A stretch of 64,000 nt of DNA from Bacteroidota bacterium (GCA_038749535.1 JBCDHX010000004.1:17603-81602); one strand, 5' to 3'. Shown: positions 25,563 through 52,260, counted from the stretch's first letter. Numbers and translations are program-made. The notes: a model not told the origin generated them from the sequence alone.

Positions 25563-27488
25563 TCAACCAAGTATAACGGTATTCAATTCCGTCGCCAGTT
25601 CATTGCGCATTGCCATCAATTTTTGCTGCACTTGTAAGAGCTGACGGATGTTGTTGCCGTCCTTTTCGGTTTTGATCTTGTCCATGTTAGAAGCGCACAT
25701 TTCGATGAGCTTTTGCAATTTAAATCGCTGTAAAGACTGTACACTATCACGTGTGAAGTTTTGCTCTGGCATTTTTTGAGTACGCAAGAAGATTTCGCGA
25801 GCTTCCCAGCCGGGGCTATATTCATGTGGCGAACTGAGTAAGTCAAGTGACAATTGCCGGACATCCTCTTCGGTATGATTGATGAAAAAATCGGTATTGA
25901 CAACTTCTTCAGCTACCAAACGATCAAATGCAATATTCACCACTTTTTTATACATCGCATTGCTGAAATCGGATAGCACTTCCTCCAAATTACCCAACAC
26001 AAACTCCGCTACACTGATATTTTCTTCCTCATCAAATACCTTATCGCCTAGCGTCACGATGATACGGACGATGTCTTTTTCTTGAAAGGCATCCTTAGAT
26101 TTGGCAGGCGCAGGAGGCTGAGCAGTATCCCTGACTGGCTGCATGGGTGCATCAATACTGCGCTGCGGTCGTTCGCGTTTGAGTTTATCACGCTTGACTT
26201 GTCCACCTACCACACGGTTGACTTCGGCCACCAGAATACTTTCCTCAATCTCCATCAATTGACTGCACTCTTTGATGTAAAGTGCTTTTTTGATCGGATC
26301 GGGAATTTTGGCAATCGAACTCACAATGTCCTTGACCAACTGTGTTTTTTTGATCGGGTCGTTGGCAGCATCTGCAAGAAGTAGTGTTGTTTTGAAAAGA
26401 ATAAAATCTTGTGCCTTTTCATCGATAAATTCTTGAAAAGCGGTCGAACCAAGTTGCTGCACAAAGGAGTCAGGATCTTCTCCTTCCGGCAGTAAAACCA
26501 CTTTGACATTCATGTCCTGCTGCAACACTAAATCCAGTCCACGCAATGCTGCTTTAATACCCGCCGGATCACCATCATAGAGAATTTTGATGTTGGGCGA
26601 GTAGCGTTTGATGAGGTTAATCTGCCCGACGGTGAGGGACGTTCCTGAAGAGGCGACCACATTTTCGATGCCAGCTTGATGTAGCGAAATGACATCTGTA
26701 TAGCCTTCTACCAATATGCATTCATCTCGTTTTCGGATAGCTTGTTTGGCAAAATAGGCACCGTAGAGGACTTTGTTTTTGACATAGATTTCGGTTTCGG
26801 GAGAGTTGATGTATTTGGGGATTTTCTTTTCTTTCTTAAGTGTCCGCCCGGCGAAGGCTATAGGCTTGCCCGATAGGTTATGAATGGTAAACATGACACG
26901 CTCCCGAAAGAAGTCATTGTCATATTTGGTGGTCAGTCCCAATTGTCGTAACAGGTCGATATTATAGCCTTGCTGAGTAGCAGTACTTGTGAGTGCATCT
27001 CGCTGCGCAGTCGCAAAACCCAATCCAAACTTTTCAATCGTTGCCTCACGGAATCCACGTTCTTTGAAGTAAGTCGCGCCTACTGCTTTTCCATCTCCGA
27101 TTTTGAGCTGTTTCTGATAAAATTCTTTGGCAAATTGATTGACAATGTAGAGACTATCTTGCTGCATGAGCAACTGCCGCTCTTCATTCGTCAATACTTT
27201 CTCCTCTATTTTGATGCCATATTTATTGGCGAGATAGCGCAAGGCTTCTGGATAGCTAAACTGCTCATGATCCATTAAAAACTGTACGGGCGAACCACCT
27301 TTACCGCATCCAAAACACTTACAGATATTTTTGCTGGGCGAGACCGTAAATGAGGGGGTTTTCTCATTGTGGAAAGGGCATAGTCCGATCAGGTTGACGC
27401 CGCGCCGTTTCAGATTGACGAACTCACCCACGACATCCTCAATCTTAGCGGTTTCTAATATTTCGTAGACTGTCTTCTGTGGAATCAA
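25563..27488 (-). CDS. dnaG: DNA primase
   Basis: The zinc ribbon CPFHNEKTPSFTVSPSKNICKCFGCGKGG and the TOPRIM motif LVEGYTDV are present. The start codon appears to be TTG. Confidence 0.95.
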   Translation of the reverse strand: MIPQKTVYEILETAKIEDVVGEFVNLKRRGVNLIGLCPFHNEKTPSFTVSPSKNICKCFGCGKGGSPVQFLMDHEQFSYPEALRYLANKYGIKIEEKVLTNEERQLLMQQDSLYIVNQFAKEFYQKQLKIGDGKAVGATYFKERGFREATIEKFGLGFATAQRDALTSTATQQGYNIDLLRQLGLTTKYDNDFFRERVMFTIHNLSGKPIAFAGRTLKKEKKIPKYINSPETEIYVKNKVLYGAYFAKQAIRKRDECILVEGYTDVISLHQAGIENVVASSGTSLTVGQINLIKRYSPNIKILYDGDPAGIKAALRGLDLVLQQDMNVKVVLLPEGEDPDSFVQQLGSTAFQEFIDEKAQDFILFKTTLLLADAANDPIKKTQLVKDIVSSIAKIPDPIKKALYIKECSQLMEIEESILVAEVNRVVGGQVKRDKLKRERPQRSIDAPMQPVRDTAQPPAPAKSKDAFQEKDIVRIIVTLGDKVFDEEENISVAEFVLGNLEEVLSDFSNAMYKKVVNIAFDRLVAEEVVNTDFFINHTEEDVRQLSLDLLSSPHEYSPGWEAREIFLRTQKMPEQNFTRDSVQSLQRFKLQKLIEMCASNMDKIKTEKDGNNIRQLLQVQQKLMAMRNELATELNTVILG

Positions 27489-27872
27489 TTTCTGATTATT
27501 TTTGATGTATAGACACCTAAGTAGTATTTATTACTACCTTTGAGCATCAAAATAAAACTATAAATTCAAATTTTGTTACTGGTAAAATTACGTTTTAGTG
27601 TTTCAATAAATTAAAAAAAATCGCTTTATTTGTGTTTAAGAATTCCTTAACTATAAGTTTAAGTAATTGATTTTTAGTTAGTTATAATTCATACTCGATT
27701 AATTAATCGCAAAAAGTAAAAAAGCATCAATTTCTTGTGTGACTCTTACTTCTGAAGCCGTCATAAGGGTGTAACAAACAAAGACAAGATAGCTTAAAAA
27801 GTTAAGCTTGAAACCAAAAAAACTCAGCCTAATACAAATAAACACGAGCTACTCCGAACGATCAAAAAATTT

Positions 27873-27932
27873 AATGGGTGTTCTCATAGTGTGTGGACTG
27901 CCCCGCGCTTCCGAGCGTGGGGTAGCTTTTTC
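27873..27932 (+). ncRNA. sRNA-like unit 1 (conserved box plus terminator)
   Basis: The box AATGGGTGTTCTCATAGTGTGTG is followed by the hairpin CCCCGCGCT-TCCG-AGCGTGGGG and then TTTTT. Confidence 0.4.
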
Positions 27933-27961
27933 TTCACCGACAGAACACAACAAAAAGAAAT

Positions 27962-28017
27962 AATGGGTGTTCTCATAGTGTGTGTATAAAAAGCCTGTCT
28001 TCGGATGGGCTTCTTTT
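27962..28017 (+). ncRNA. sRNA-like unit 2
   Basis: An identical 23-nt box is followed by the hairpin AGCCTGTC-TTCG-GATGGGCT and then TCTTTT. Confidence 0.4.
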
Positions 28018-28045
28018 CACACGACAACACCTTAATAGGTAATAT

Positions 28046-28105
28046 TTTGGGTGTTTTTATAGTGTGTGTAGATGCTTCAGGAGCTTTTCCTGGAGCATTT
28101 TTTTG
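28046..28105 (+). ncRNA. sRNA-like unit 3
   Basis: The box variant TTTGGGTGTTTTTATAGTGTGTG (19/23 identical) is followed by an 11-bp hairpin ATGCTTCAGGA-GCTTT-TCCTGGAGCAT and then TTTTTTT. Confidence 0.4.
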
Positions 28106-28125
28106 TCAACACACTTCCATATTCC

Positions 28126-28815
28126 TTATTCTTCCCCCTCTACCTTCAAGATAAATCCAACCTTAAATACATTTTCGATTTTGATGCGTCCGTCTTGACT
28201 CAACAATTTACGCAAGCGTGAGATGAAAACATCAAAACTTCTTCCCAAAAAATAGTCCCACTTCCCATAGATCTGCTCTACCGCATCTTCTCTTCTCAGT
28301 ATTTGATTTTTATGTAAGCAAAGTAGTCGCAAAATGTCACTTTCCTTCTCTGTCAGTCGATGAGCGGTATCTTTATAGGTCAATTCCTGTAGTGCGTAAT
28401 CAAAAAAGTAATCCCCAATCTCAAATTTAGACTCCGTCGATACTTCTTTTTCTCCTCTTCTGAGTATCACTTTGATTTTCCAGAGCAATTCGTCTTCATC
28501 GAACGGCTTGGTGATGTAGTCCTCTGCGCCTATTTCGTAACCTTTCATTTTGTCTGCCTTCATAGAGCGAGCCGTCAGAAAAATGAATGGTAGCTCTGCA
28601 TTATGTTGCCGAATGCGTTTGGCGAGCTGTAATCCATCCATTTTTGGCATCATAATATCTAATATACACACATCGAAATTTTCTTCTAGGATAGTTTGCC
28701 ACGCGTCAGCTCCATTAATCTTCAGTTTGACATTATAGTTTTCTTCTTCTAATAGTTGGGTCAATAGAAATCCTAAACTTTGATCGTCCTCTACGACGAG
28801 TATAGATGCTGGCAT
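28126..28815 (-). CDS. OmpR/PhoB-family response regulator with no adjacent kinase
   Basis: Receiver domain (ILVVEDD, LDIMMPKMDG) plus a winged-helix C-terminus. Confidence 0.9.
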   Translation of the reverse strand: MPASILVVEDDQSLGFLLTQLLEEENYNVKLKINGADAWQTILEENFDVCILDIMMPKMDGLQLAKRIRQHNAELPFIFLTARSMKADKMKGYEIGAEDYITKPFDEDELLWKIKVILRRGEKEVSTESKFEIGDYFFDYALQELTYKDTAHRLTEKESDILRLLCLHKNQILRREDAVEQIYGKWDYFLGRSFDVFISRLRKLLSQDGRIKIENVFKVGFILKVEGEE

Positions 28816-28838
28816 GATATATTTATTTTATGCTTGTG

Positions 28839-30023
28839 CTAAGTTTGGTCGAGTGCTTCTAGTATGATCTGACACGCCCACTCGATTTCTTGCTCTTTGA
28901 TCGTCAGTGGCGGTGCGATTCGGATGCTGCGTTCATTGAACAAAAACCAGTCAGTAATCAACCCTTTTGATAAACAGTAGTGAATGATGCGCCGAATCTC
29001 CTCAAACTCCCCGATTTCTACTGCCATAATGAGTCCGGCAGAGCGAATATCTTGGATGCGCGGATGTTTCAGCAATTTGTGAAATAAAGATTCCTTTCGC
29101 TTGACTGTCCCTATCCAATCCTCTTCCAGCAAAGTTTTCAGCGTTGCATATCCTGCCGCACAGCAAACCGGATGCCCACCAAAGGTAGTAATATGCCCCA
29201 AAACTGGTCGCTCAGAAAGCGTCTTCATGTGTGTCTGACTAGAGATGAATGCCCCCATCGGCATACCGCCGCCCATGGCTTTGGCGATCAGTAAAATATC
29301 GGGTATCACATCATGCTGCTCGAATGCCCAAAGCGATCCAGTCCTACCATAACCCACCTGAATTTCATCTAAAATCAGTAACGCACCCACTTCCTCGCAT
29401 CTTGCTTTTAGTTTTTTCAAAAAATCAGGTGTGGGTGGACGGACACCCCATTCTGCTTGTACTGTTTCTACTATAACGGCGGCTGTTTGAGTGGTAATAT
29501 CCATCAGGCACATCTCGCAATTAAAGTCGATATGACGAATACCCGGCAAGAGCGGATAAAAAGCTTGAGTGAAAGTCGTAGGCGACATTAAACTAGCTGC
29601 CCCTTGAGTACTACCGTGATAGGCTCTCTGTGCAGCGATGATCTCGGTGCGCCCGGTCACTCTTTTTGCCAGCTTCATCGCGCCTTCGGTAGCTTCACTT
29701 CCTGAGTTGACAAAATAAATACTGTCCAGTGAATCAGGTAAATGGCTACTGAGTAGTTCCGCCAATTGTACTTGAGGTGTCAATACATATTCGCCGTAAA
29801 CCATAGTGTGCAGATAAGCATCCAGTTGGTTTCTGATCGCTGTGACCACTTTATGATGTCGATGTCCTAAGCTACTGACGCCTATACCCGATATGAGATC
29901 CAGATAAGATTTTCCGGTCTCATCGTACAGATAGACACCTTCCGCCCGATCAATTTCAATACCCAAAGGCGCATCGCTCGTCGGTGCTACATGTTGTAAA
30001 AATAATTGACGTTTAGATGGCAT
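28839..30023 (-). CDS. Class III pyridoxal-phosphate-dependent aminotransferase
   Basis: GVSSLGHRH, SGSEATEGAMKLA, LILDEIQVGYGRTG and IAKAMGGG (PLP Lys) are present. Confidence 0.85.
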   Translation of the reverse strand: MPSKRQLFLQHVAPTSDAPLGIEIDRAEGVYLYDETGKSYLDLISGIGVSSLGHRHHKVVTAIRNQLDAYLHTMVYGEYVLTPQVQLAELLSSHLPDSLDSIYFVNSGSEATEGAMKLAKRVTGRTEIIAAQRAYHGSTQGAASLMSPTTFTQAFYPLLPGIRHIDFNCEMCLMDITTQTAAVIVETVQAEWGVRPPTPDFLKKLKARCEEVGALLILDEIQVGYGRTGSLWAFEQHDVIPDILLIAKAMGGGMPMGAFISSQTHMKTLSERPVLGHITTFGGHPVCCAAGYATLKTLLEEDWIGTVKRKESLFHKLLKHPRIQDIRSAGLIMAVEIGEFEEIRRIIHYCLSKGLITDWFLFNERSIRIAPPLTIKEQEIEWACQIILEALDQT

Positions 30024-39203: not shown

Positions 39204-39465
39204 AGTACGCTGATTTTGAGTAGTTTAATACAGTTATACATATTTGATAAATTCATATATTTTTATTATATTTGTGACATTAGAATTGTTTTTAATATCT
39301 ACTTCCCTGATAGTAAGTCAATGACGTGAATCAGTAGATTGCCTTCCAAACACAAACACAATTCAGCATTCTTTTCCTTCATCTCGTAGAATGCTCAAGC
39401 TAGTTTGAAATCACTTTATGAATAGTGCTTCCCTGAAAGCAGGGGAGCAATAGTATTATATTTCT

Positions 39466-52122: not shown

Positions 52123-52260
52123 CATCCAAAATGGTCAACTTTGTCATAGCAATCAACACATAGGTATTATTAGTCATAATTACTAGCGTAGATCGCTTAG
52201 GGAGGATGCCGAAAATCCTAGAAAAGAGTAGGTATTTTAATCACACAATACTACGTTAAT

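Follow-up and report, generated by a model that had tools for sequence, protein, structure and literature searches.

Three short repeats lying in tandem between 27873 and 28104 in a 64,000-nucleotide (nt) stretch of DNA from a Bacteroidota bacterium (GCA_038749535.1, JBCDHX010000004.1:17603-81602; this whole stretch is the window of the following text) are, on the evidence of sequence, almost certainly tandem genes for short regulatory RNAs belonging to an undescribed family of the Saprospiraceae. The best explanation as a whole, which we consider probable, is that they encode multicopy trans-acting small RNAs whose conserved box pairs with start-codon regions. Each unit would encode a short non-coding RNA, either as a gene in its own right or as a module in an array that is partly co-transcribed; in this genus the RNA would measure ∼50–70 nt and consist of an invariant single-stranded box (GGGUGUUCUCAUAGUGUGUG), a lineage-specific terminator hairpin and a U tail. 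The box would be the working part, most likely a seed pairing with other RNAs.

The array occupies an intergenic spacer (27489–28125) with the start of the primase gene dnaG on one side and the stop of a response regulator gene on the other, both on the minus strand. Its defining element is a 20-nt plus-strand box, GGGTGTTCTCATAGTGTGTG, which is exact at 27876 and 27965 and recurs at 28049 with two C-to-T changes, so that three matches are observed in the window versus 0.01 expected from shuffles. The units begin at 27873, 27962 and 28046 on the plus strand, with start-to-start spacings of 89 and 84 nt. A first-pass annotation of the window had proposed three tandem plus-strand units here, and its coordinates, spacings, identities and hairpin arms are all correct; with the box drawn at 23 nt, as it was then, the sequence of unit 3 is indeed 19/23 identical. 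The hairpin and T run that it had placed after each box are present, and the wobble positions in the three hairpins, read from the sequence, are G-T on the plus strand as it had said.

Unit 1 (27873–27931, plus strand), recognized by sequence, terminator scan and covariance model, is made up of an A/T-rich lead-in (AAT), the box (27876–27895), a hairpin at 27898–27925 (CTGCCCCGCGCT TCCG AGCGTGGGGTAG) and the T run CTTTTTCTT. It scores 62.9 bits (E = 2e-17) with the covariance model described below, and elsewhere in the genus, too, the first unit is followed by hairpins of its type (GACTGCCCYG...GGGGTAGC). Unit 2 (27962–28017, plus strand; sequence, fold and covariance model) has its box at 27965–27984, a linker TATAAAA, hairpin arms at 27992–27999 and 28004–28011 around a TTCG loop, and an interrupted T run (TCTTTTC), and scores 33.0 bits (E = 8e-8). 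Unit 3 (28046–28104, plus strand; sequence, terminator scan and covariance model, 31.5 bits) carries the variant box GGGTGTTTTTATAGTGTGTG at 28049–28068, hairpin arms at 28072–28082 and 28088–28098 and a run of ∼7 T. Units 1 and 3 pass a consensus scan for intrinsic terminators, defined as a GC-rich stem-loop followed by a T run. The TTTTTAT variant box of unit 3 also appears in arrays elsewhere in the genus, in two genomes (L013 and L014), and its C-to-U changes would keep pairing with G in the form of G-U wobbles. A C/A-rich trailer that had been described after each unit can indeed form pairs with GUGUG when the units of the window are folded; its conservation does not extend to other genomes. 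A decayed fourth unit suspected at 27763–27812 can be set aside, having only GGGTGT in common with the others, no T run and no match to the covariance model.

The same anatomy recurs in 195 distinct units collected from box matches: an A/T-rich lead-in, the invariant box, a hairpin 1–3 nt 3' of the box and a T run. The lead-in consensus, AAAGAWTAAT, is the sole conserved segment upstream of the box; a small covarying hairpin lies just 5' of it in 24–28 per cent of units versus 3–7 per cent of shuffles. A hairpin ending at most 3 nt from a T run (median −21.6 kcal/mol) is found in 177 of 194 units, compared with 30 on the opposite strand and 24 in shuffled sequence. In a register test for which the only anchors were global ones, namely the first T run and a set distance after the box, 73–84 per cent of positions pair versus 36–50 per cent out of register. 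Seven units with an 8-bp stem served to build a covariance model, which picks out 182 units in 97 sources; all of these units coincide with same-strand units of the box pattern or align with such units in an array. In its alignment 97.6 per cent of stem cells are paired, compensatory changes occur in all 8 pairs, and two-sided changes number 166 stem cells versus 33 in shuffles (0/500 shuffles reach 166), while sliding the partner by 1–3 columns leaves 30–55 per cent paired. These alignment figures are somewhat inflated by having been fitted to the model; the register test and the per-sequence folds are independent of it. Alignment with MAFFT followed by RNAalifold on 38 diverse units did not recover the hairpins, because stem lengths differ among units.

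About 80 stem cells are G-U pairs, which fix the strand because they would be A-C mismatches on the other one. Judged by this covariation, selection maintains the hairpin as an RNA structure of the unit strand. The view of the first-pass annotation that the units are paralogous plus-strand small RNAs with varying terminator hairpins is thus upheld by the recurrent architecture, the covariation and the excess of hairpins with T runs over controls. Coding of a small peptide was considered and rejected: an ATG sits at the box edge in only ∼44 per cent of units, and reading frames diverge straight after the box. The array is also not a leader, because no same-strand gene lies downstream of it in the window.

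The box is conserved in related genomes, being found in 17 of 41 relatives and in 49 of the 120 genera sampled within its family in the GTDB taxonomy, where a reversed control pattern gave 0 matches. In a collection of species-representative genomes it occurs on more than 120 contigs; nearly every one bears the label Saprospiraceae, Lewinellaceae or that of an unresolved bin of Bacteroidota, Chitinophagales or Saprospirales, with Neolewinella, Lewinella, Phaeodactylibacter and Candidatus Opimibacter among the named genera. Cultured carriers of the box include Neolewinella litorea HSMS-39, N. aurantiaca SSH13 and Lewinella sp. JB7. Outside the family, none of 16 genomes from the order's other families has it, barring two matches with two mismatches (L022 and L023); that in L023 is followed by neither hairpin nor T run, and the surroundings of L022 were not inspected. 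Tandem copies number 1–6 per genome.

This pattern bears on the possibility that the box is a generic and functionless intergenic repeat, akin to repetitive extragenic palindromes (REP) or miniature inverted-repeat transposable elements (MITE). As such a repeat would, it recurs between genes as a short sequence beside palindromes, but it has just four copies in this genome (three in the array and one in a spacer of an array of clustered regularly interspaced short palindromic repeats, CRISPR), so it is not scattered in both orientations; it keeps one orientation relative to dnaG, and its sequence stays the same in 49 genera although the palindromes vary. A dispersed REP- or MITE-type repeat is rejected on the grounds of copy number and orientation, and the general idea of a functionless repeat is scarcely credible. 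A CRISPR array or mini-array at the locus is likewise rejected: what the box matches in the C38 array is a spacer and not the repeat, and the C38 repeats are nowhere in the window's contig.

The orientation relative to dnaG is a property of the family. When loci gathered by the box alone were searched by tblastn with the DnaG protein of the window, 99 loci matched, and 168 of 169 units lie upstream of dnaG and are directed away from it, the nearest unit standing 82–3399 nt from the dnaG start. Among the 96 distinct loci having at least 1500 nt of upstream sequence, 75 contain dnaG, and the exceptions mostly belong to a longer subclass of unit (∼125 nt). The linkage is real, and a compact promoter region shared back-to-back is a possible explanation of it. 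In the window, dnaG (25563–27488, minus strand; Pfam Zn_ribbon_DnaG, DNAG_N, Toprim and DnaB_bind) is transcribed away from the array, and the A/T-rich spacer between its start codon and unit 1 (27489–27872, delimited by the open reading frames, ORFs) must contain the minus-strand dnaG promoter and possibly an array promoter too. No GC-skew switch was seen at the locus, and a replication origin was rejected for that reason.

Several side observations concern this spacer. In one clade (L070, L076, L080, L081, L086, L089 and others) the entire 148 nt between dnaG and the first unit are conserved, and a dnaG promoter box (TAGTTTTG/A) lies 6–16 nt before the start codon, so close that a leader, if there is one, is probably very short. 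Among the dnaG genes of the family, many seem to start with TTG.

The linkage could also mean that the RNAs are dedicated regulators of dnaG, the box pairing with the messenger RNA (mRNA) segment for the zinc-finger sequence CPFH-N-EKTPSF and the copies carried by phages shutting down host primase. Apart from the arrangement of the units, the best duplex in the interval −60 to +300 falls on the HNEKTP codons (CAYAAUGAGAARACNCC) in 50 of 87 loci, this site has a mean of −14.9 kcal/mol versus −11.2 ± 1.9 for shuffled boxes, and a unit-bearing phage encodes its own primase-helicase. However, across the same interval the real box does no better than shuffles (66/150 are as good), and the site was chosen after the fact, with 15/300 shuffles matching it. 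Synonymous positions within it vary freely (GAA 48/GAG 39; AAT 35/AAC 18; all four Thr and Pro codons), so nothing there suggests selection for pairing, and about one-fifth of loci, the longer subclass included, are not beside dnaG. A dedicated dnaG regulator is therefore quite unlikely, and the dnaG mRNA as a target was rejected as unsupported, its complementarity being marginal and its synonymous sites unconstrained.

A second family helps to make the design clear. This sister family, a box (AGTTTTCTCATAGTATGTT) followed by a variable terminator, has three copies in this genome (C41:32767–32785, plus strand; C143:7285–7303, minus strand; C173:10618–10636, plus strand) and occurs in 18 of 41 relatives (loci L167–L196), in all 11 genomes of the genus and in 8 genera, with 1–4 copies per genome that are sometimes tandem. 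Most copies have a promoter box equal or near to TAnnTTTG that ends ∼6–8 nt before the box; from this position the core would be at the RNA 5' end. The only sequence common to both families is the core TTCTCATAGT.TGT, whose complement, ACUAUGAGAA, is a start codon with its flanks. A further conserved motif (TACCGTTTCCTAA or CTACCTAAAGT) was noticed ∼50 nt before the sister box.

The complement of the full box (CACACACU-AUG-AGAACACCC) would likewise look like a start codon in the context that this genome prefers, AYACU-AUG: ACT abuts ATG 192 times versus ∼80 at other offsets, and CAYACT abuts it 11 times versus 2.5. Given this preference, the box complement resembles an idealized start region followed by an Arg codon, a combination that is typical of signal peptides. 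Start contexts in this genome are also A-rich at −14 to −10 and depleted of G upstream, with a Kozak-like look. The most likely action would be the occlusion of translation initiation regions, often those of genes for secreted or surface proteins beginning with Met-Arg, and such occlusion suits the Bacteroidota because they do without Shine-Dalgarno sites and Hfq. Hfq was indeed not found in this genome, which encodes an RRM_1 (RRM-type RNA-binding) protein at C1:49985–50194. Tandem copies would provide dosage, and slightly altered seeds such as that of unit 3 may broaden the target range.

No perfect trans target of the box was found in the genome. Within a crude set of 3827 predicted starts, 36 start regions have a perfect box complement of at least 9 nt versus 10.2 ± 8.1 for freely shuffled boxes, 3/200 of which reach 36. 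The pattern ACACTATGAGAAD gave ∼69 matches in 121 genomes versus 31 for its reversed control. Cargo proteins of the type IX secretion system (T9SS) make up three of the nine top candidates examined (contigs C83, C141 and C36), the best being the cargo gene on C83 at −26.9 kcal/mol, in agreement with a suspicion of the first-pass annotation. It had pointed to matches at the start codons of two genes in the window that it took for T9SS cargo, and these (CTATGAGAA at 39464 and TATGAGAAC at 52260) do overlap ATGs, in ORFs of 392 and 1135 amino acids with signal-peptide-like N-termini; the case for T9SS cargo as targets is weak.

The family and its strand, the terminator hairpins, the place beside dnaG, the copies on phages and the match to a CRISPR spacer are established by the sequences; we infer that the units are transcribed, where the RNA begins and that it pairs with start regions, and several observations count against this account. 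When the anti-start CAT is held in the shuffles, they average 17.9 ± 11 and 16/200 reach 36, so that the enrichment is weak. By a rough tally ACT-ATG-AGAA is seen 4–5 times versus ∼3 expected, which is near expectation; within the genus, only four genomes conserve the C83 candidate; and 30 loci sampled from the 121-genome matches yielded a single orthologous pair and no target that recurred. For the window's family no TAnnTTTG was found at a fixed upstream distance, and it occurs within 200 nt of the first unit in only 30 of 118 cases; the first box bases could therefore be promoter and not RNA. Some internal array units have weak T runs, and arrays may therefore be read through rather than divided into separate genes. 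As to promoters, the ∼120 nt read upstream of unit 1 contain no plus-strand TAnnTTTG, and in other clades a plus-strand TAnnTTTG lies 40–80 nt upstream of the first unit in a subset. The near-matches TATAATTG and TATATTGG overlap the first G of the box, and if they are the promoter the RNA would start within the box.

There is some reason to ask whether, granted that the RNAs exist, the box is instead a protein-binding site, the units serving as decoys or sponges that titrate, for example, an RRM-type protein, with tandem copies multiplying the sites. From genus to genus the box does not vary at any of its 20 nt, a stretch longer than most seeds; the search for targets brought up none that is conserved; the arrays of 1–6 copies include some leaky terminators; and alongside the RRM_1 protein encoded here there is a precedent in Bacteroides, where the RRM protein RbpB attaches to the FopS RNAs at their 5' part (PMC11697453). 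Nevertheless the two families have different flanks and have in common only a core antisense to the start codon, and the C-to-U variants retain the potential to pair. Moreover, the box is not internally repetitive, unlike most known protein-titrating RNAs. Protein binding and base pairing are also compatible with each other. A role purely as a protein-binding site is regarded as unlikely.

Pairing with start regions also has a close parallel. In Bacteroides, the FopS/GibS RNAs comprise 14 paralogues of ∼65–70 nt, each opening at its 5' end with a conserved seed of ∼21 nt and continuing into a variable part and a terminator, and the seed pairs beside the start codon of the mRNAs of susC, an outer-membrane protein, and blocks translation (PMC11697453). 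One FopS copy is carried by a phage that CRISPR spacers tie to its host (PMC11697453). The resemblance extends to the phylum, the lack of Hfq, the presence of an RRM-type protein, and a phage copy with a CRISPR link, as well as to a plan of short multicopy RNAs in which a conserved box precedes a variable body and an intrinsic terminator (182 units here, the 5' position of the seed being shown for the sister family only, by its promoter box). In contrast, the FopS 5' consensus GTATTAGATTTAAGGTTAACAAA, inferred from a published Northern probe, has no similarity by eye to GGGTGTTCTCATAGTGTGTG, and FopS genes are dispersed and have standard promoters, whereas the window's family is tandem by dnaG and without a fixed-distance promoter box. 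Because the sequences are unrelated, this would be a new family of a known kind and not a member of FopS, with FopS/GibS as its closest known analogue in design. We infer seed pairing with start regions by this analogy, together with weak statistics.

Tandem sibling small RNAs are known elsewhere, among them OmrA/OmrB, PrrF1/PrrF2, LhrC1-5 and Qrr1-5, which are adjacent paralogues with their own terminators. They have in common with the present units an identical seed, which in OmrA/B is a region at the 5' end (PMC13473878), and a divergent remainder, put to use for dosage and partial specialization. They differ in belonging to other phyla, in depending on Hfq and in having unrelated sequences. 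We know of none that is tied to dnaG or carried by phages in such a manner. Searches of Rfam returned nothing above chance in a permissive scan of 27000–29000 and nothing at the gathering threshold for seven representative loci, the presence of a GibS/FopS model in the database being unchecked. The best Bacteroidota match of the permissive scan, BTnc201 of Bacteroides (RF04177), has a similar G/U-rich single-stranded stretch (GUGUUUGUUUUGUUUGUGUGUG) before a terminator hairpin, but at 19.7 bits versus a gathering threshold of 105 (E = 2.2) the match is at chance level.

No paper on small RNAs in the Saprospiraceae was found in the literature, and to our knowledge post-transcriptional control has hardly been explored in Bacteroidota other than the gut Bacteroides. 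The Saprospiraceae are abundant in activated sludge and on marine particles, and a widely conserved small-RNA family with a sister family would be of interest there. Given the parallel with FopS, the masking of start codons by multicopy seed RNAs may be widespread in a phylum whose initiation is not based on Shine-Dalgarno sites. The invariant 20-nt box offers a ready probe (CACACACTATGAGAACACCC) that eases Northern blots, target capture and reporter tests.

The family is also present on phages. Three contigs of the IMG/VR database carry the box (L035, L036 and L037), two of which, L035 and L037, belong to the same myovirus lineage and encode tail sheath, tape measure, baseplate and tail fibres as well as a helicase and a primase. 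The myovirus unit is complete, with upstream hairpin, lead-in, box and terminator, and stands directly after the tail-fibre assembly gene. The third contig, L036, encodes a methyltransferase, a nucleotide kinase and a phage-family protein of unknown function, and carries another unit. Phage and host share just ∼25 nt, the box plus ATAAT, as attachment sites do, and this raises the question of whether the box acts at the level of DNA, as an attachment site or as a site for a protein controlling the dnaG region, with the hairpins as ordinary terminators. Small-RNA and transfer RNA genes are common integration sites, and the linkage to dnaG would fit as well. Yet the distance to dnaG spans 82 to 3399 nt, the tandem units in the window have no mobile-element genes beside them, and no integrase was seen among ten large ORFs scanned in 13 kb of phage DNA, the ORFs flanking the unit included. 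Each copy is tied to a covarying hairpin of one strand with G-U pairs, the sister family's own promoter aims at the core, and a GC-skew switch is lacking. A DNA-level role for the box is thus very doubtful.

The fourth genomic copy of the box lies inside spacer 14 (CTACCACACACTATGAGAACACCCCATAGCGCGTG) of a CRISPR array that has 16 repeats of a 37-nt sequence (CTTCAAAAGCCACTTCCGATACTACTTGGATTGAAAC) and is truncated by the contig end (C38:1–1173, locus L005). The spacer matches unit 1 over 21 of its 35 nt (E = 3e-5) and unit 2 over 20 nt (E = 1e-4), and it must derive from a different copy of the family, because its flanks do not match the units. Capture from a phage or other mobile copy is likely, though not proven, and the match would mean that foreign DNA bearing this RNA gene has met this lineage. 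The exact protospacer of spacer 14 was not in IMG/VR or metagenome contigs, and the other spacers of the genome's three arrays have no match to the unit-bearing viral contigs. The only cas operon present is a complete type I-B operon with cas6, cas8b, cas7, cas5, cas3, cas4, cas1 and cas2 (C19:1–11000, locus L007), and a search of the genome for type III RAMP proteins gave none; spacer 14 is therefore unlikely to act on the RNAs. On the chromosomal copy, positions 1–3 and the last 11 positions of the spacer are unpaired, and since type I systems have seed requirements for targeting, the self-match should be harmless. One might also imagine control of the primase, through pairing of the box with the zinc-finger segment of the dnaG mRNA, as the purpose of the whole arrangement, phages with their own primase-helicase carrying a copy to stop host priming and the host directing CRISPR at that gene; we think this most improbable.

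The longer subclass of unit (∼125 nt; L055, L074, L096, L101, L114, L124, L126, L127, L137 and L146) consists of the box, a first hairpin, a conserved stretch TTTAAAAYTCCA, a composite terminator (GGGTTTGYYG...GGCAAACCC) and a T run. These units lie away from dnaG and at most loci are convergent with an ORF of 164 amino acids. In L096 and L114, short tandem repeats (GGTTTATT and GGGATATT, 6–8 copies) directly follow the terminator on its 3' side. Downstream of the array in the window, as the first-pass annotation had it, the neighbour is an OmpR-type response regulator (28126–28815, minus strand; Pfam Response_reg and Trans_reg_C) convergent with the array. It has no tblastn homologue in ∼150 other loci, and the downstream neighbour is variable.

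The type I-B operon has an array of its own and a third array lies at C201:125–740; both are built on a 29-nt repeat (CTTTGAATTGCACCGAAAGGAATTGAAAC) whose 3' end is the same as that of the 37-nt repeat of C38. The degenerate last repeat of the C38 array adjoins a photolyase gene, that flank being free of cas genes, and spacer 16 of that array has a 19-nt match within a coding region at C155:1398–1416. An ORF related to REP-associated tyrosine transposases sits between cas3 and cas4 of the type I-B operon.

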